From the NCBI RefSeq assembly GCF_030384885.1, contig NZ_CP128613.1: DNA of 64,000 nucleotides; one strand, 5' to 3'. Shown here in pieces: positions 21,735 through 30,500 of this stretch (position 1 is the first letter of the stretch; every line of letters starts with the position of its first letter). This stretch comes from Escherichia coli. GTDB lineage: Bacteria > Pseudomonadota > Gammaproteobacteria > Enterobacterales > Enterobacteriaceae. The notes under the pieces were generated by a model, which was not told the origin of the DNA, searched no databases, and saw nothing but the letters and a program-made list of their open reading frames with translations. Made by a program: the position numbers and the translations under genes.

Positions 21735-22808
21735 CTACGAAAGCCCGCTCCCAGCAAGGACTGACGCCAGATAGTTTCTGTCCATGGCTGCTTTTCGCAT
21801 CTTACGTCTTAACCCTGCCTTGAATACCTTATCATTCGTTAAAATATTAATAGCGATGTGCCGTATCCCTGAAAATAATTCTGCGGCGTTTCCTCTTCGT
21901 ATTTTGCAGTCGTCTTCATTCATTACCACGTCCAGACGCCAGTGCAGCTTATTCTCCACGTGCCAGTGATTTCGGATCGCTGTGGCGAACTTTTCTGCGG
22001 TTAAATCAGCAGAACTGATATAATATCTGACCGTCATTTCTGGCTCTTTCTTTTGTTCTGCTATTATTGACCGAAAGGAGAATGCCACGCATAATTTCTT
22101 CAGTCCTTTCCATTCAAACGTGAAATCAATAAGTTCATCACGGACATCGCAAACAATATGAAGACGGATTTCTTCTCTGCCGTGACTCTTTTCACTCATT
22201 GCGTAACTGTCATGCTCTGGATTATTTAATTCTTTCAGCGGAAATTTTTCCTCGAAGGCTTTATTTAGCCGCCCCTGGTTTCCTTTTACAGCGAATAAAT
22301 AATCACCTCCCTGTTTTTGTATCTTCTCTGCAATATCTTTCTGGCAACCCATCGCATCAGTTGTGATGATTTTTCCTTTAATATCCAGAATGTTAAGAAG
22401 TTCTGGGATAGCTGTAATCTCATTGGATTTCTCATCCGTCCTGATCTGTCCGATGACCAGACTGTGCATTGTTGAGAATGCACTAATGACATGAATCGCT
22501 CCCCTGCGGCGACTCTTGTCATAAGAATGCCGGAGTGTTTTTCCATCAATTGCGATGACGTCTTTATCATCTGAAGTATGGCAATCTCGCATCCAGTTAA
22601 TAAAGCACTCGTGAAATTTTGAAGGACTGATACAGGATACAACTCTGGCGATGGTATCGTGAACAGGAATACCATTTTCAAAATCACCATATTGTTTTAA
22701 AAAATCGCGATGTGCTTCCCCAAACTCCTCTATATGTTCCCAGCCTTCTGCACCAGAAATAACGGCACAAATAGTCAACAGTAGAATATCCGACAATTTA
22801 TGTTTCAC
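21735..22808 (-). CDS. H-repeat-associated protein (ISAs1-family transposase-like); N-terminus apparently frameshifted
   Basis: 357 aa ORF starting at GTG; an ATG with strong SD (AAGGAG) at 22872 opens a 24-codon ORF ([24 protein letters not shown]) in another frame that stops at the start of the long ORF. Confidence 0.8.
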
Positions 22809-22999: not shown

Positions 23000-24889
23000 T
23001 TAAGTGAGTAGGCCACCGGAACCTCCCCGACAGCCTCTCGCAGAACCGTACGTGAAACTCTCGCTTCATACGGCTCCCGTCAGGCAAACGCGCTTCCTGG
23101 TCCTGCTTTCCAGTGGGCAAACAACTCCGGCTTCTCTTTTGACAGCCTTTCCATTAGCTGACACGCCTTCGTCTTTCTATACCGCAGGGTTTTATATTTC
23201 TTTCTCGCCCACGCAATCAGCGTCAGATTAATATATCTGCATACTTTCTTCATCGCTGATTTGTGGTATCTCGCGTAATAATTCAGCCACCCCGATATTA
23301 TCGGATTCAGCCACTTCGCAATATCTTCGAGACTCATCTCCACCCTGCGTCTGATCCACAGTTTCCTGAGTTTTCCAATCATGCCTTTCTGCGCACGGTT
23401 ACTCGCCGCCGGGCTGAAACTCGTAAAGAGGTTTCCCCGCCGGTGGTTACGTGCTCTTCGCGCTCTGAACGTATACCCCAGAAAATCAAACTGCACTGTT
23501 TCATGGTTCGCCTGTCGTTCGCTGTCTTTGCAGTAAACTATTTTCGTTTTCTCCGGATGTAATTCCAGTCCACATTCCTGAAAACGTTTTGCCAGCTTAT
23601 TCAGTAATTCCTCTGCCTGTTGTTTACTGCCACAATGAATTAATCCATCATCTGCATAACGGCACCAGGGAATTTCCGGATAATGTAACGTCAGCCATTT
23701 ATCAAACACATAGTGCAGAAATAAATTCGCCAGTACCGGGCTGATGACTCCACCCTGTGGCGTACCTTTATTTCTTTCCTTCAGTGTTCCATCCGGCATC
23801 TGCACCGGCGCTGTCAGCCACCGGCGAATAGACAGTCTTACCCATTTATCCGCACAATGTTTATCCACTGCCCTGAGTAATAAATCGTGGGGGATATTAT
23901 CGAATAACCCTTTAATATCAAACTCAAGACACCAGTCGTATTGCCAGCAACGTTTTCTGGTGACTGCTATTGCATCCAGCGCTGATTTTCCATGCCGGTA
24001 TCCGTATGAATCATTCAGGAAATAACGCTCCACTAATGGTTCAAACGTTACCAGCACCGTCATCTGCGCTATTCGATCGCTTACTGTCGGTATTCCTAAA
24101 AGTCTTTTGCTGCCATCCTTCTTCGGAATTTCCACCGCACGCACTGGCGGCGGCATCCAGCTTCCCGACGATAACCTGTTCCAGATTTTGTACAGATTTC
24201 CTTTCAGATCCCGCTCAAAATCTTTCAGCGTCTGGTTATCCACTCCGGCAGCTCCGGCATTCGCCTTTATCCGCCGGTACGCTTCCACCACATGCAATTT
24301 ACTGACCTGAAACGGTTTTGTCTGTTCACACACAGCCTCCTCCTGCCTACAGTTGGGCTGTGATGCAGACTGCCCGACGCTGTCCCTTCGCTCCACGTTC
24401 ATTACAAACGCTTCCTCACTACTACGAACAGCTCTGCCCCGGTTTCGCACATCGATACTCTCATACTCATAATTTCGGTTATTTGTATTTCTCTCTTGAC
24501 ATTGCGACGACCGGTTCCCGTAGTTCCTGCAAAGAGCCCGATACAGCGTCATGCCTGCTATACACCGGACATCATTCACGCAGCATTCGGAATTCACCCG
24601 TAAATTAATCCCGGCGGTATCACGAAACCTCCGGTTTTGATGTCACTTAGGACTAACGACGTTTCAACACAGGTTCGGGTTTACTCATCTCACTGTATCT
24701 CACATAGGATCAGATCTCGTCTGATCGTTCCCCCTGCGCTCACTACCATGGCTCTTTACCACAGCAGCCGGGGTTGTTTGGGACCGACTTCCGACAGCAG
24801 ATCCCGGTGGGCCTGCCACCATCTCTTCACAAGCTTATGCTTATTACATGCAAAACGTCCCGTTTTGCATCTTTGTGCCTACGGCACAC
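23000..24889 (-). mobile_element. group II intron (approximate boundaries), carrying an intron-encoded protein
   Basis: Minus strand: candidate 5' end GUGUG at 24889; domain V GAGCCGTATGAAGCGAGAGTTTCACGTACGGTTC at 23078..23041 immediately after the IEP stop; 3' end not precisely mapped. Confidence 0.6.
23080..24402 (-). CDS. group II intron reverse transcriptase/maturase, no endonuclease domain
   Basis: ORF 23080..24597 trimmed to MNVERRD; RT motifs including YADD (CRYADDGLIHC) and a maturase (X) domain; ends without an HNH region. Confidence 0.85.
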   Translation of the reverse strand: MNVERRDSVGQSASQPNCRQEEAVCEQTKPFQVSKLHVVEAYRRIKANAGAAGVDNQTLKDFERDLKGNLYKIWNRLSSGSWMPPPVRAVEIPKKDGSKRLLGIPTVSDRIAQMTVLVTFEPLVERYFLNDSYGYRHGKSALDAIAVTRKRCWQYDWCLEFDIKGLFDNIPHDLLLRAVDKHCADKWVRLSIRRWLTAPVQMPDGTLKERNKGTPQGGVISPVLANLFLHYVFDKWLTLHYPEIPWCRYADDGLIHCGSKQQAEELLNKLAKRFQECGLELHPEKTKIVYCKDSERQANHETVQFDFLGYTFRARRARNHRRGNLFTSFSPAASNRAQKGMIGKLRKLWIRRRVEMSLEDIAKWLNPIISGWLNYYARYHKSAMKKVCRYINLTLIAWARKKYKTLRYRKTKACQLMERLSKEKPELFAHWKAGPGSAFA

Positions 24890-25138
24890 CGTGATCTTTC
24901 CCTAGCATATCGCCCTGACGCGCCGCTGGTTTTACGCTCATGGTATCTCCTTAAATTATTTTGGGCTGTATTCTGGCACCATAGACTCTGATTTATCACC
25001 AATACTCAAAACACCATTAATCAGAAAAATCAGCATCTACATATAATTAATTAGAATAATTCAATAAATTATTTTTCTGCCATTATTGACTTGGCTTTTT
25101 ATTGAATGAAATAAAAGAAAAAATCATCACCTAAAAAT

Positions 25139-25756
25139 TTAGTAGACGTTTCTTGTTACTATATGCGCATCATCAACCAAACGCCCGGAACTATCTGTTT
25201 CCTCATGATCAGATACACACATTTCTGGTGCATATCCTGAAAAATCAGAAGTCGCATTCGGATAATTTGTGACATCTAATCTTAATTTAAAACTATATAT
25301 CTCCCAAAATAATTCAGGAGATCTTTCAGGCAAAAAATCATAAATATCAATAAGTATCTTCATCCCCCTTACACGGAACTCCCTCCTGTGTCCATATAAC
25401 GGATGATCTTTACATCCACCAATGATTTGGGACAGAAAAAATCTTGCTCGTGTTTCTGTTACTCCCCAATTAGCAACAGGTTGAAAAATTTCAGAACCAT
25501 CTTTCACACTAAAAAATTTACATTGGTAAAAGCCTGAAAACGTACCATATTCTCCAATATATTTTTCTGATTCATTATAATCCATGCAAACAAAAACATA
25601 TTCAATATCTCCATTTTTTGCCATAACATCATGGATAATAAATGGATTGTTTTGTGATACAGAGAAAATACTATGTACGTTCTGCACTTCAACATTTAAA
25701 GCCCATATATCACTGGGAAAGAAAATCAAACATATCAAATACAACCAAAATTTCAT
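25139..25756 (-). CDS. putative immunity protein for the upstream Rhs C-terminal toxin
   Basis: 205 aa, low GC, hydrophobic N-terminus; start overlaps the Rhs stop (TAATG); the usual position of rhsI genes. Confidence 0.45.
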   Translation of the reverse strand: MKFWLYLICLIFFPSDIWALNVEVQNVHSIFSVSQNNPFIIHDVMAKNGDIEYVFVCMDYNESEKYIGEYGTFSGFYQCKFFSVKDGSEIFQPVANWGVTETRARFFLSQIIGGCKDHPLYGHRREFRVRGMKILIDIYDFLPERSPELFWEIYSFKLRLDVTNYPNATSDFSGYAPEMCVSDHEETDSSGRLVDDAHIVTRNVY

Positions 25757-26748
25757 TATTGCGTACCACTCGGACAACTCATATCATCAGGTATAGTAAT
25801 TATTACATCTTGAATGCCCATATCCTTCTCTAGCCCTGGTATTTCAAGAATCAACTTTCCGGGATTTTTATCCATTAACTTTTGCTGAGGGTTTATATTA
25901 TTTCTACGCAAAGCCGAATCATCAACGATGTCCCTGACACAACTAAACAGCTGAGTACCATCAGCTTTTAATTTTCCGCTAATAGAATTTATTTTATTTC
26001 TGGCAGATGGTTTATCCCTAAATCCCCATTGAGAAGGGATAATTGCTGTCGAGTCAGTTGTTACTCCGTATTTATCCAAATTTGAAGGACTAGTGTTATA
26101 TCCACCACCTTTCCCAACTAGTCTCGAATTTCCTTGTAATACTCGTGCGCTGCCTATACATTCTTTTAACCCCAAAGGATCTATATACCCCACAGGATCC
26201 AGCGGATACGCATACAGGTTCCAGCCCCCCTTCAGCCCTATCGGATCCTGGGTAATATACCTCCCCTGCAACGGGTCATAGTACCGGTGATGGTTGTAAT
26301 ACAGTCCCGACTCCTCATCATACTGCTGCCCCGGCAGACGGAGTGACTGTTGCAGGTGCAGCGTGCTTTCCTCTCCCAGCAGGTTTCCCCACTCGTCATA
26401 CTCCCCCTGCCACGCCGTTTCCCCTTCCGGGCTGATGAGCGCCTGCGGCAGCCCACGGTGGTCACAGTGGTAAAGATGAAGTTTCCTCTCCGGGATGTAT
26501 TCCGCCTCCATCTGCGCCGCCATCTGTTCCGCCGTCAGCCCGCACTGCGCAAGCCACTGCTGGCTTTCCTCACTCACCGCGCCCGTGCGCAGCTCCCGCT
26601 CCAGCCTTCCCAGCATCACCGCCAGCTCCGCCGGTAGCGTCACCCCCGTGTCCTCCTGCAACATCTCCGCCAGGCTATCCTGCATCGCCGTCTGGCCGGA
26701 AAGCCTGCAACAGCAGCAGGCTACGACACAATGGAATGAAGCACTCAA
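25756..26748 (-). CDS. orphan Rhs fragment: C-terminal part of Rhs core plus variable toxin tip
   Basis: Contains the Rhs core end [52 protein letters not shown] followed by ~139 aa of low-GC unrelated sequence; the large N-terminal Rhs body is absent. Confidence 0.8.
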
Positions 26749-27079
26749 AACCCGCGCACAGAGTAGCCCACAGTTGCGTGGCTGGTTGCAGACCCGCCAG
26801 GACTTACATGCTTTTGCAGATCTCGTGATGCAGCGCGAGAAAGAGGGATTAACCCTTTCCTATATCAAAAATGTCATCTGGCAGGCGGAGCGGGGGCTGG
26901 GGCAGGAAACGCCTGTGGAATCTCTGCTGACGCAGTACCAGGATGCCCGTGCGCAGAAGCAGAATACAGATGCGCTGGAAAAACAGATTAACGAGCGGAT
27001 GGACGGCGTGTTAAGTCGCTGGCTGCTGCTGAAGAATAATACGATACCGACGATAAAAAAAGACATTGAATTTCAATAA
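26705..27079 (+). pseudogene. 3' remnant of an unidentified gene, abutting the truncated Rhs fragment head-to-head
   Basis: ORF 26495..27079; only the part beyond ~26705 has plausible coding character, the upstream part is antisense to the Rhs core. Confidence 0.3.
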
Positions 27080-27105
27080 CATTCATGAATACAAAGGAGC
27101 TTTAA

Positions 27106-27585
27106 ATGGCGAATTTAATTTATTTAACACTAAATGGTGATAATCAAGGGCTCATTTCAAGTGGTTGTTCATCACAACCATCCATTGGAAATAAAGCTCA
27201 AACAGCACACATTGATCAAATTATGATTTATGAATTCATGCATGGATTAAATCGAGATCAAAACGTCAACCATCATCATTTGACAATAAAAAAACCTATA
27301 GATAAAGCATCACCCTTATTAGGCAAAGCAATTTGCGACAATGAATTATTGACATGTGATTTTTCCTTTTATCGTACAAATAAATTTGGAATTAATGAAC
27401 TGTACTATAAAATCAAATTAACTGGAGCAAAGATAAGCGACATTCATGTCTCTATATCACATATTGTTGTTGATAACAGCGTTCAACCCGAAGAGTCAGT
27501 TTCTTTCAGTTATGAGTCAATTATATGGGAGCATTGTTCCGCTGGCACTAGTGCATACAGTTTATGGGAAGATCGTCTTTTTTAA
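27106..27585 (+). CDS. hcp: Hcp-family protein (type VI secretion tube/effector-carrier)
   Basis: 159 aa; Hcp-like pattern LIYLTLNGD..HHHLTIKKPIDKASPLLGKAI..SVSFSYESIIWEH; SD AAAGGAG upstream. Confidence 0.8.
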   Translation: MANLIYLTLNGDNQGLISSGCSSQPSIGNKAQTAHIDQIMIYEFMHGLNRDQNVNHHHLTIKKPIDKASPLLGKAICDNELLTCDFSFYRTNKFGINELYYKIKLTGAKISDIHVSISHIVVDNSVQPEESVSFSYESIIWEHCSAGTSAYSLWEDRLF

Positions 27586-27605
27586 AAATATCTGGGATTA
27601 TTATA

Positions 27606-28502
27606 ATGGCTAACAATATTTTACACTCTTCAACATCAGACAGTGAAAACAAAAATACAAGCACTGACAGTACGTTATTTAATGAAAAATTCCCATTTCA
27701 ACTAAGGCAAGATTTCGCATCAAGAATAACAGAAGATGAAAGTGATTTTTTTAAATGGAAAAAAATAAGAGAGTTGGCATTTGTGAGCAATCATAAAGAA
27801 TGGAATAAATATGACTTATTAATTTTAAAATCTGTTAATGAAATCAACATTCATTTGTCCAGCACTCCATACTTTCAGCCGTTGGATTGGTATATAATAA
27901 AAGCCATGCTCTGGACTGAAAACGATGCGGCAAATACTTCTCAGTGGAATGGTTATCCATTACAAATTGGTCGTTTTCGGAAAGATAAAGCGATGCCTGC
28001 TTTAATTTCTGGAGAAAAATCCACAGCCCTTGTTACCCCCCCACAATGGAGAAACAAAGCATTCAATGGGTTAAAAGATCCAGAAAGAAATTACTGGGCA
28101 AAAGAACAAATAACTGGCTCTCCAGAAGAGAATATCAAAGCAGCAATTACTTACTTAATGATGAAACTTTCTAATACAAAGGAAGAGTCAACTATCGTTC
28201 AATATGACTCAACTCTATATAGCACCATTGTCCAAAAAGGCGATTTGGCTGACAACATCAGAAAAGAGAGAAAAACGACCATACCTAACTTAACGAAAAA
28301 CAACCCTGGAAAAAATCTCGATAAAATACACCCGGGAGATATTTTATATTATCAAAAAGCATCCATGAAAGTAATAATTACTGGATGGAAACCTATCACA
28401 ATAAAAAATGTAGCGATGAATTATAATGGTGGTGGAGATCCCAAGTATGCAATAAAACTTCAGTTCGTTTATACATTGCTCACAAAAAACAGAGTGTTAT
28501 AA
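27606..28502 (+). CDS. candidate Hcp-linked effector: cysteine-free protein with putative lysozyme-like region and C-terminal LysM-like segment
   Basis: ORF 27564..28502 trimmed to MANNILHSS (298 aa); no signal peptide, no Cys; segment WTENDAANTSQWNGYPLQIGRF and TIVQKGDLADNI..IHPGDILYY; family assignment tentative. Confidence 0.4.
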   Translation: MANNILHSSTSDSENKNTSTDSTLFNEKFPFQLRQDFASRITEDESDFFKWKKIRELAFVSNHKEWNKYDLLILKSVNEINIHLSSTPYFQPLDWYIIKAMLWTENDAANTSQWNGYPLQIGRFRKDKAMPALISGEKSTALVTPPQWRNKAFNGLKDPERNYWAKEQITGSPEENIKAAITYLMMKLSNTKEESTIVQYDSTLYSTIVQKGDLADNIRKERKTTIPNLTKNNPGKNLDKIHPGDILYYQKASMKVIITGWKPITIKNVAMNYNGGGDPKYAIKLQFVYTLLTKNRVL

Positions 28503-28504
28503 GA

Positions 28505-28954
28505 ATGGGAAAAATAACAATTATTCTACTGCTTACATTCTCATGTACAAAAGGTCTGGCATTTGACATTTCCATGTCTAAAGAATGTAGTGGCGTTGAT
28601 GAACTTGAATTTGTTGATTGTGTTAAAAACTCATTTATTATGAGCACTATTACACTTAAAAAAGCAGAAGTAAATATAAAAGAGAAAATTAAAAAATGGA
28701 ATAACGATGAGGACGAAGCAATAAGAAAAGAAGCAGTTATTTCTTTAAAAAGACTAGAATCTTCTAATCGGGAATTTATACGTTACAGATTTGCTCAATG
28801 CTCTTTTGCTCTAACCTGGGGGGCCAGAGTAGGACGTCTGGCATTCTCTCGACTATATCCATGCTATACTGAGTTAAACAAAATTAGAGCCATGCAACTA
28901 AACAATGCTTTCATTTCAGATTTTCAAAACCCAGATGAGATATCCAGCAAATGA
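28505..28954 (+). CDS. secreted small protein, candidate immunity protein (DUF1311/LprI lysozyme-inhibitor-like pattern)
   Basis: 149 aa; Sec-type signal peptide MGKITIILLLTFSCTKGLA; conserved-Cys pattern with REFIRYRFAQC. Confidence 0.4.
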   Translation: MGKITIILLLTFSCTKGLAFDISMSKECSGVDELEFVDCVKNSFIMSTITLKKAEVNIKEKIKKWNNDEDEAIRKEAVISLKRLESSNREFIRYRFAQCSFALTWGARVGRLAFSRLYPCYTELNKIRAMQLNNAFISDFQNPDEISSK

Positions 28955-29307
28955 TTATTATAAAATTAAGATTAACATTACTATTTATACTGGCCACAAT
29001 TACATATTCAGTACAATCAGACGAATTCGATGATCAAACCACTTACACGAAATACCGTTATTTTTCCACAGCCATACCAGAAGATATACGTAGATTTATG
29101 TTCTACGTAGATTATTGCTTTGTAGATTTAGCATTCGATATCGAAACTGACTCAATGACAGCTAAAAATGATATTATTAATGAATGTACTCCATTAAAAG
29201 AAAGAAACAAAACATTAAAAGAAAAATATAAAAAAGATGAAGAGATAATAGCAATTCTTTCCATTGCAGATGATACCATTTTAATTTATGAAGAATTAAA
29301 AAAATAA
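28951..29307 (+). CDS. secreted small protein, second candidate immunity protein
   Basis: 118 aa; signal peptide MIIIKLRLTLLFILATITYSVQS; 4-nt overlap with the upstream gene; very AT-rich. Confidence 0.35.
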   Translation: MIIIKLRLTLLFILATITYSVQSDEFDDQTTYTKYRYFSTAIPEDIRRFMFYVDYCFVDLAFDIETDSMTAKNDIINECTPLKERNKTLKEKYKKDEEIIAILSIADDTILIYEELKK

Positions 29308-29433
29308 CTCACATGCAATTCACTGGCAATATATATTATAATTTTATAAAAAAAATAATATTTACATTATAGAAATACTCAGCTCCTGTTTGCTGCCCGC
29401 CCTAAACTACAGGCGGCAGCATAACAATAACGA

Positions 29434-30234
29434 TTACTGGAATCGACTCACCAAGTCTTTCACCATCGATACATATGTTTTTTGTTTCAAATTAAACAGT
29501 TGCACTTCCGTAACATGGTCCTTTGATAGTTCTTTATTGCTCGTTTTTGTTATTCCAGCCGGCGGAAAAATTACTCTCGATTCATAATTCACCGGCGACC
29601 AGGTAGCCCACTCACCTGTTGCCACATCCACCAGCGTGAAACGTACCAGGTAGCGCAGGGAGATAGTGTCAGTGAGTTTTTCATTTTTATAGTCGGACCA
29701 TACTGTTGATTTCAGCGCAGAGTCATATTTTCCTGTCTGCAACGTATCATGGTAAACAATAATCGCTTTCTGATGCCCTTTCGCAGCCACAAAACGCAAT
29801 GCCTGCATCCAGTTCATATTTTCAGCACTGGCAACATCCTCGTTCTCATTTTTATCTTTATTTTTGTTACAAGTCAGAGGCTTTTGCCTGTCCGGGATAC
29901 CAGAGAATGTGGAAACAGTATAATATTTTCTCATCTCCTCCTGCATAATGGTTTCCGGTGCGCGACTGCCAGACTGGACAAGTATTACGGGAGAATTGAG
30001 AGGCACACGAAACTCATCTCCTTCAAGCGCAGCCTGAATATCCTCCTCGGATACAGCCAGAGTGGTTTCATTACCGAATAAATCTTTGTCTGTCAGTTGC
30101 GGGGGAATGTTTTTATTAATATTACTTTGTGTAACTTGAGCTTTTTTCTTTTTTTCATCAATAGAAGATTGAGAGGCACATCCTGCAAGCAGCGAGAATA
30201 ATACACATATGCAACAAACTTTTTTTGAATTCAT
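29434..30234 (-). CDS. yafT: lipoprotein of unknown function
   Basis: 266 aa with lipobox LLAGC; position adjacent to the tRNA-Asp gene. Confidence 0.7.
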
Positions 30235-30500
30235 AATCGGACACTCCCTCGCCTGTCATAATGATTAGAATATTTAGCACTGATAACGGACTCTAATTAT
30301 ATACCCCACTTAAATAATAACAAACAAAATCAACATGAAATATACATTCATTTAGTCAATATAAAATTATTCTCTAAAAATATATTTAAGTTGAATGGTT
30401 CGATATCATTATTGAATTTTAATAAATGAGACAACAAGCGAGAGTTACGCACTTACGCCAGAGTAAAATCATTGAACAGAGAAATAGCGGGATTTAAATG

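Follow-up and report, generated by a model that had tools for sequence, protein, structure and literature searches.

The Rhs-CT/RhsI systems of Enterobacteriaceae, which are delivered by a type VI secretion system (T6SS) and are linked to PAAR or VgrG proteins, are characterized by an Rhs core ending in the motif PxxxxDPxGL, a variable C-terminal (CT) toxin tip of low guanine-plus-cytosine (GC) content, and a downstream immunity gene that overlaps the toxin gene. According to one paper, the toxins to which Rhs repeats are fused usually act in the cytoplasm (PMC12994826). In the classical orphan rhs-CT/rhsI cassette a 5′-truncated rhs gene retains roughly 500 nt of core end together with the tip and the immunity gene, and lies, displaced, downstream of an intact main rhs gene with a tip and immunity gene of its own. 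A locus with the features of these systems is found at positions 25,139 to 26,748 of a 64,000-nucleotide stretch (the window) of the Escherichia coli contig NZ_CP128613.1 (assembly GCF_030384885.1). It is an Rhs polymorphic toxin-immunity module, ordinary as a system and here degraded; the novelty lies in the cargo, a toxin and an immunity domain that match no catalogued family and for which neither Pfam nor NCBIfam has a model. It is the remnant of an Rhs effector stranded by deletion of its T6SS; on balance its tip, a predicted double-psi beta-barrel (DPBB), would act in the periplasm, probably by cleaving peptidoglycan, and would be countered by a periplasmic immunity protein.

The list of open reading frames (ORFs) for the window contains a minus-strand ORF of 330 amino acids (25756..26748) and a partner ORF (25139..25777), which encodes 205 residues when counted from the ATG at 25756 and whose start overlaps the toxin stop codon as TAATG. 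A sequence-only reading of this DNA had recognized the end of an Rhs core in the former, followed by the architecture of a polymorphic toxin tip. Both are borne out: the core-end peptide which it quoted is present, and the remnant is matched, at levels well above chance, by NCBIfam NF041261 (RHS_core; E 3.8e-94, profile positions 1082-1261 of 1261), TIGR03696 (E 3.3e-25) and Pfam RHS PF03527 (E 4.9e-15). The PxxxxDPxGL motif at 26167-26196 closes the core and separates it from an unrelated tip. The sharp drop in composition noted in that reading is equally evident: the core remnant has a GC content of 0.61, whereas that of the tip is only 0.38 and that of the partner ORF, which is indeed of low GC, 0.34; the value for the whole window is 0.51. 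The tip, put at about 139 residues, measures 136 when counted after DPLGL. Only 25756..26677 (−) of the 330-residue ORF is derived from rhs, comprising 170 residues of core end plus the tip, whereas the first 24 codons (26678..26748) consist of a 14-nt junction filler and the antisense of a VasL gene remnant, which supplies the spurious 5′ end of the ORF. No other rhs sequence was found within the window.

Strain 2013C-4282 is the only one of 5,426 complete E. coli genomes in which the tip and partner were found, at 99.9% identity, the tip and the immunity gene being 100% identical in the two strains. In 2013C-4282 the tip ends a full-length 1394-residue “RHS element core protein” encoded directly behind vgrG and hcp and beside a complete T6SS cluster; the complete YD shell and the N-terminal VgrG/T6SS-linked delivery region, both absent from the window, are thus present there for an identical tip. 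BLAST comparison of the window to the 2013C-4282 locus (L008) defines the event. Window positions 24443-26677 correspond to L008 1-2235 with two mismatches, and 26692-30500 to L008 28114-31922 with one mismatch. The 25,878 bp between these flanks, which are 99.9-100% identical to 2013C-4282, are missing from the window and are replaced by the 14 nt TCCTGCATCGCCGT. One end of the deletion lies within rhs and the other within the VasL gene; based upon the 2013C-4282 annotation, it has removed the N-terminal 1,088 codons of rhs together with vgrG, hcp, tssB, tssC, tssE, tssF, tssG, tagH, tssJ, tssK, icmH, tssH, vasI, tssA, tssM and most of the VasL gene. Because the flanks match 2013C-4282 with 25,878 bp gone, the fragment is the beheaded main rhs effector of the aspV/yafT-yafV T6SS island and not a displaced spare. 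The sequence-only reading, which had described an orphan cassette lacking the Rhs body, was therefore right about the loss of the body; as a classical displaced orphan the locus does not qualify, since the window has no intact upstream rhs and the truncation came from a 25.9-kb T6SS deletion. The toxin fragment of the window strain is a non-deliverable relic, since it has no genuine start codon, shell, N-terminal delivery region or PAAR/VgrG partner, and the island has no T6SS core genes. Even 2013C-4282, which keeps the whole T6SS and the full Rhs protein, has a VasL-domain gene whose annotation records a frameshift (L008 27152-28562), and the T6SS cluster of that strain may already be impaired.

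Analogous deletions between rhs and the VasL gene are found in E. coli C (L009 4673-6520) and in strain LR-64-1 (L010 4481-6298), with other breakpoints and other tips. The Rhs remnants measure 1227 nt in E. coli C, 1383 nt in LR-64-1 and 922 nt in the window, and the corresponding VasL remnants 624, 444 and 388 nt; both of the other strains also kept the rhs-CT and the small ORF which follows it. At this island the T6SS core has therefore been lost repeatedly while the rhs 3′-end and the gene behind it were kept, independently in at least three E. coli lineages, and this evolutionary pattern, in which the weapon is lost and the immunity gene kept, is of interest in its own right.

It could be argued that the whole cassette of the window strain, immunity gene included, is a silent relic without present function. 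The deletion took the rhs promoter and 5′-end, what is left of the gene borders directly on the antisense VasL remnant, no promoter signal stands above chance, and the window junction was found in no other complete E. coli genome among those examined, suggesting a recent event. We consider this explanation rather unlikely, though not lightly dismissed, for the immunity ORF has no damage and does not differ from that of the armed 2013C-4282 (100% identity), the independent deletions of E. coli C and LR-64-1 likewise spared the rhs-CT and its small ORF, and lone homologues of the immunity gene are maintained in immunity arrays. If expressed, the intact gene could still protect the strain from armed relatives.

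The window tip has no match in Pfam or NCBIfam, and none of 103 diverse tips (0/103) matches any Pfam family, in agreement with the sequence-only reading, which had left the family unrecognized. Source annotations call the homologues “hypothetical” or “RHS repeat-associated” and name no toxin domain. A word-indexed search of 5.8 billion proteins recovered only three close relatives, and a profile search of 1.84 billion cluster representatives (clusters defined at 50% identity) yielded 228 clusters at E≤1e-3, 109 of them at E≤1e-10. In 122 of 123 full-length matches no more than 13 residues separate the end of the domain from the C-terminus, Rhs/YD core domains are present in all seven of the seven longer carriers tested (including proteins of 4733 and 2081 residues), and an Rhs core end stands just before the tip in many short metagenomic matches. 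At least one member (P0028) is a Sec-secreted stand-alone protein beside which the same immunity gene is kept. Its members come from enterobacteria and from metagenome bins that carry the labels Terriglobia, Methylococcales and Thiobacillaceae. We regard it as a real but unannotated family of toxins, the toxic activity being predicted.

Conservation was examined in the 103 sequences, most of which are 35-50% identical to the window tip. Gly12 and Glu108 are invariant (103/103); position 79 is Asp in 95 and Glu in eight; and Asp115 is found in 100, Arg8 in 102, Asn13 in 100 and Gln46 in 101. Cys3 and Cys131 are both present in 101 sequences, are replaced together in one, and Cys3 alone is replaced in one. 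This co-varying pair is likely to form a disulfide, and the overall pattern, which includes a set of carboxylates, looks like that of an enzyme.

The fold, which could not be assigned by eye in the sequence-only reading, was addressed by the structure prediction proposed there. AlphaFold2 supplied with a four-sequence alignment gave an unusable model (predicted local distance difference test, pLDDT, 46), and with the 103-sequence alignment of the tip a model with a pLDDT of 98.1 and a predicted template modeling (TM) score, pTM, of 0.91. The predicted fold is very probably a DPBB, mainly composed of β-strands. Its structural matches (values in brackets) are the Streptomyces papain inhibitor SPI (7.1), MltA lytic transglycosylases (6.0, 5.8, 5.6, 5.5), expansins (6.0, 5.8), endoglucanases of glycoside hydrolase family 45 (GH45; 5.8, 5.7), kiwellin (5.5), an RlpA-like loosenin (5.3), PA4485 (5.2) and YuiC (4.0). 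Foldseek against AFDB50 placed three family members at the top (E 1e-11 to 4e-9), and nearly every match listed after them is a DPBB protein of the expansin, RlpA-like or barwin kind (E 5e-3 to 7e-2, TM approximately 0.45).

Other candidates were set aside on the basis of this model. A C-type lysozyme had been considered because phmmer of the tip against PDB returned hen lysozyme (E 0.14), and was rejected with the confident model being a DPBB. The lysozyme-like glycoside hydrolase effectors (Tge, VgrG3 and SLT-type) possess a lysozyme or goose-type/SLT α-helical fold with a catalytic Glu, which is not that of the mainly-beta double-psi barrel; in sequence, the hen lysozyme match is all that points toward them. 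The methylthioadenosine/S-adenosylhomocysteine (MTA/SAH) nucleosidase found with the family profile in PDB (E 0.79) is not significant, and its fold is incompatible, the model not being like a purine nucleoside phosphorylase (PNP). An ADP-ribosyltransferase or deaminase, suggested by the motifs R...S...E and by the Cys pairs, was dropped once the fold was known.

Homologues of the immunity protein show 59-99% identity, and a homologous ORF of approximately 200 residues lies directly 3′ of a homologous tip at every locus examined. These loci comprise E. coli 2013C-4282, Citrobacter, Lelliottia, and L013-L017 plus L019, of which L014 is an NCBI genome assembly and the remaining five are metagenomic or run-assembly contigs. 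In Citrobacter farmeri, where the locus is again the one on the yafV side, an Rhs gene immediately precedes the homologue; in Lelliottia wanjuensis the gene immediately before it encodes a 1335-residue Rhs protein with DUF6531 and lies at a different locus. The tips of both are approximately 83-87% identical to that of the window. The tips on L013-L017 and L019 are roughly 35-67% identical to it, and behind each lies an ORF of 199-213 residues whose product is a homologue of the window's immunity protein, with BLASTP E values from 2e-44 to 9e-12. Two immunity proteins outside the set from which the profile was built match it at E 1e-27 and 7e-32. Searches of Pfam, NCBIfam and PDB sequences gave no match for the family. 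The assignment of the 205-residue partner as the cognate immunity gene is supported, since its pairing with a homologous tip is kept at every locus examined; the sequence-only reading had arrived at the same role from the overlap, and had named conserved pairing across genomes as the check.

A lone homologue, 59% identical and without a toxin, heads an orphan-immunity array (Imm57, Rap1a, MafI2). This array adjoins msrB and holds two Imm57 genes, Rap1a, MafI2, DUF7668 and unknowns (L006 8001-15903; L007 1701-9603).

A Sec-signal-like N-terminus is found on nearly all of the immunity homologues examined, further examples being MTKKRFVAAGLLLSLTPAWA and MKTSLIICFALLLIPGFASPARA. Only the L013 ORF departs from this, its called start having no signal-like segment; that start may be mis-set. 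Three Cys residues are invariant in eight aligned immunity proteins. Because the immunity proteins are signal-peptide-like with invariant Cys residues and the Cys pair of the toxin co-varies, the tip probably acts in the periplasm of the target cell. This would also fit the Sec-secreted stand-alone member which keeps the same immunity gene, and the co-occurrence of the family with Tlde1 tips and Rap1a-type immunity genes. The metagenomic contig L015 (1-8305) carries a series of short Rhs-tip ORFs, every one with a small ORF behind it, beside a DPBB-tip/immunity pair. Two of these tips carry Tlde1 domains, from which it appears that Rhs-linked toxins acting in the periplasm co-occur.

A toxin acting in the cytoplasm, for instance on nucleic acids or nucleotides, would accord with the usual destination of Rhs cargo and with the weak nucleosidase match of the family profile, and would require the hydrophobic N-terminus of the partner to be a membrane anchor or an artefact. 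We think this very improbable. Signal-peptide-like N-termini on nearly all of the immunity homologues, the three Cys residues invariant in eight of them, the co-varying Cys pair of the toxin and the Sec signal of the stand-alone member all argue against it; the nucleosidase match falls short of significance, and the model does not have a PNP-like fold. Moreover, Rhs fragments with a periplasm-acting Tlde1 domain exist.

With the periplasm as the predicted site of action, the described effectors closest in setting are Tae, Tge, Tlde1 and the SleB-like T6EC3, with which the family would share a periplasm-delivered toxin and a signal-peptide-bearing immunity protein, and it keeps company with Tlde1 tips and with Rap1a-type genes in arrays. 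It differs from them in that the model matches DPBB proteins and not lysozyme-like, amidase or L,D-transpeptidase-like enzymes.

Among known enzymes, the DPBB lytic transglycosylases MltA, YuiC (3D domain) and RlpA come closest. MltA possesses three conserved aspartates, D261, D297 and D308, of which the second binds the −2 sugar and the third is catalytic (PMC4499186). In the MltA sequence these lie in the motifs VASDRSIIP, ALDVGGAI and HFDIY, respectively. In YuiC, D162 and D151 stand with the catalytic D308 and the sugar-binding D297 of MltA. The motifs of the tip family, VTxxSAAVIP, GVxD79VIGG and LIxE108LPG, occur in the same order as those of MltA, as judged by eye only. The tip would thus share with MltA, YuiC and RlpA the predicted DPBB fold, an extracytoplasmic or periplasmic setting, conserved acidic residues and, by eye, the order xxD-SxxIP, D-V-G-G and an acid at a strand end. 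It differs in having no detectable sequence homology to them, a Glu rather than an Asp as candidate catalytic acid, and a helical insert of approximately 20 residues (helices 84-88 and 93-100) between the second and third motifs; in addition, it is carried as an Rhs toxin with a dedicated immunity protein, and its activity is predicted. Because the matched bacterial DPBB enzymes of the envelope are lytic transglycosylases (MltA, YuiC, RlpA), and because the family keeps enzyme-like carboxylates, we give even chances to the proposal that the tip cleaves the glycan strands of peptidoglycan.

Other small DPBB proteins act as inhibitors or wall-looseners. The tip might, by analogy, be a non-enzymatic protein that blocks some target in the periplasm by binding to it, for which an essential cell-wall enzyme, lipid II and the glycan strand itself are candidates. 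We hold this to be improbable, in that an invariant Glu, two nearly invariant acids and the Arg, Asn and Gln, maintained across sequences of approximately 35% identity, look more like an active site than a binding surface; furthermore, with only a few copies delivered at each T6SS firing, a toxin that binds stoichiometrically would presumably make a weak weapon. No greater weight is given to an enzyme of the periplasm or envelope with another substrate (lipid-linked precursors, lipopolysaccharide or capsule sugars, or a peptide bond). The signal-like N-termini of the immunity proteins and the conserved Cys pair would suit such an enzyme, as they support a periplasmic site, and the fold superfamily includes the GH45 beta-glucanases and other activities. 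The bacterial envelope enzymes among the DPBB matches are nevertheless the lytic transglycosylases MltA, RlpA and YuiC, and the conserved motif order resembles that of the 3D domain.

The following mechanism may be proposed. Where the system is whole, as in 2013C-4282, the 136-residue tip would lie enclosed in the Rhs shell; by analogy with what is established for Rhs proteins, a cut behind DPLGL would free it and the T6SS would shoot it into neighboring cells. In their periplasm it would, if it is a glycan-cleaving enzyme, cut glycan strands as the DPBB lytic transglycosylases do, with the invariant E108 as catalytic acid and D/E79 and D115 assisting, while the 205-residue periplasmic protein would inhibit the toxin by binding to it. 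In the window strain any toxin fragment that is translated would stay in the cytoplasm, and only the immunity gene could still matter, guarding against relatives with the full weapon. The fragment may also serve as recombination stock for other rhs genes. Tip-swapping with these is conceivable because the core end is approximately 90% identical to that of other E. coli rhs genes, the conserved part that has been kept being approximately 500 nt.

Several points weigh against the interpretation of the locus as the remnant of a periplasmic, peptidoglycan-cleaving effector. The first is the mostly cytoplasmic action of Rhs cargo mentioned above. Comparison of the family profile by hhalign to E. 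coli RlpA, full-length MltA and the MltA C-terminal domain returned nothing (probabilities below 1%), and so the likeness to the DPBB enzymes is one of fold only; the equivalence of E108 and MltA D308 was drawn by eye and was not reproduced by hhalign. The signal peptides were called by eye without a predictor. Lastly, a promoter scan of the region found five sites versus 4.9 expected from shuffled sequence, which is the level of chance. Sequence membership of the 3D (PF06725) or DPBB_1 (PF03330) families also fails, the tip and its 103 relatives being without a Pfam match, and for this reason the tip is said to work like, and not to be a member of, the 3D/RlpA families.

No paper linking DPBB, RlpA-like, expansin or barwin proteins with T6SS or polymorphic toxins was found in the literature searched, the coverage of which was incomplete; PMC3482391, PMC11148199 and PMC12994826, each searched individually, gave nothing relevant on DPBB toxins. 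It is possible, at somewhat less than even chances, that the tip and its partner represent the first DPBB (MltA/RlpA/expansin-like) family of polymorphic toxins, a peptidoglycan cleaver with an invariant Glu that is carried in Rhs/YD shells and acts in the periplasm, together with a new family of disulfide-bonded periplasmic immunity proteins. Its 228 clusters and the immunity family would be additions to the catalogue of interbacterial weapons, no description of either having been found in that literature. If the proposal is true, a wall-targeting toxin in an Rhs shell would be a useful case for the release of toxins into different compartments, and a compact cell-wall-active enzyme of 136 residues might find use as a reagent. 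The lead for a new effector family is solid and testable; it is no surprise in principle, and in the window there is only a relic.

The window is an E. coli-type chromosome segment with the gene order yafL, dpaA, yafJ, lpcA, fadE, ivy, yafV, ISAs1 transposase, group II intron, immunity gene, rhs fragment, VasL remnant, hcp, three small ORFs, yafT (the name follows the E. coli C annotation) and tRNA-Asp. The features of the locus itself are listed in Table 1.

Table 1. Positions of the rhs remnant and adjoining features in the window, with the basis for each assignment
Feature	Position	Strand	Basis
Rhs core C-terminal remnant, 170 aa	26167..26677	-	NF041261, TIGR03696, Pfam RHS; 99.9% identical to rhs 3′ part of 2013C-4282
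Putative toxin tip, 136 aa, ending CPSGTQ, plus stop codon	25756..26166	-	Predicted double-psi beta-barrel, unannotated family
Predicted immunity gene, 205 aa; ATG overlaps toxin stop	25139..25756	-	Homologues, conserved pairing
Sec-signal-like segment of immunity protein, residues 1-19	25700-25756	-	By eye
14-nt filler, TCCTGCATCGCCGT on + strand	26678..26691		Deletion junction; matches neither flank
VasL-domain T6SS gene, 3′ remnant; other deletion edge	26692..27079	+	100% identical to 2013C-4282 from L008 28114; RefSeq “VasL domain-containing protein”

Beyond the VasL remnant there is an intact hcp gene (27106-27585, + strand; TIGR03344, E 1e-58) followed by three ORFs, the region as a whole extending over 27106-29307. 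The first of these encodes a protein of approximately 300 residues without a Pfam match, which some RefSeq records call “peptidoglycan-binding protein”; the second (28505-28954) belongs to the DUF1311/LprI “lysozyme inhibitor” family, and the third encodes 118 residues. Together, hcp and the three ORFs have the look of another effector/immunity set, linked to Hcp, that the T6SS deletion left behind.

On the other side, between the immunity gene and the ISAs1 element, lies a group II intron (23003-24820, minus strand), with Rfam matches to RF01999 at 24703-24820 and RF00029 at 23003-23078 and a reverse-transcriptase/maturase ORF at 23080-24597. This insertion, with its ltrA reverse transcriptase/maturase gene, is also present in E. 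coli 2013C-4282. The ISAs1-family (H-repeat) transposase ORF (21735-22808, minus strand) adjoins yafV, and its copy in 2013C-4282 is annotated as frameshifted.

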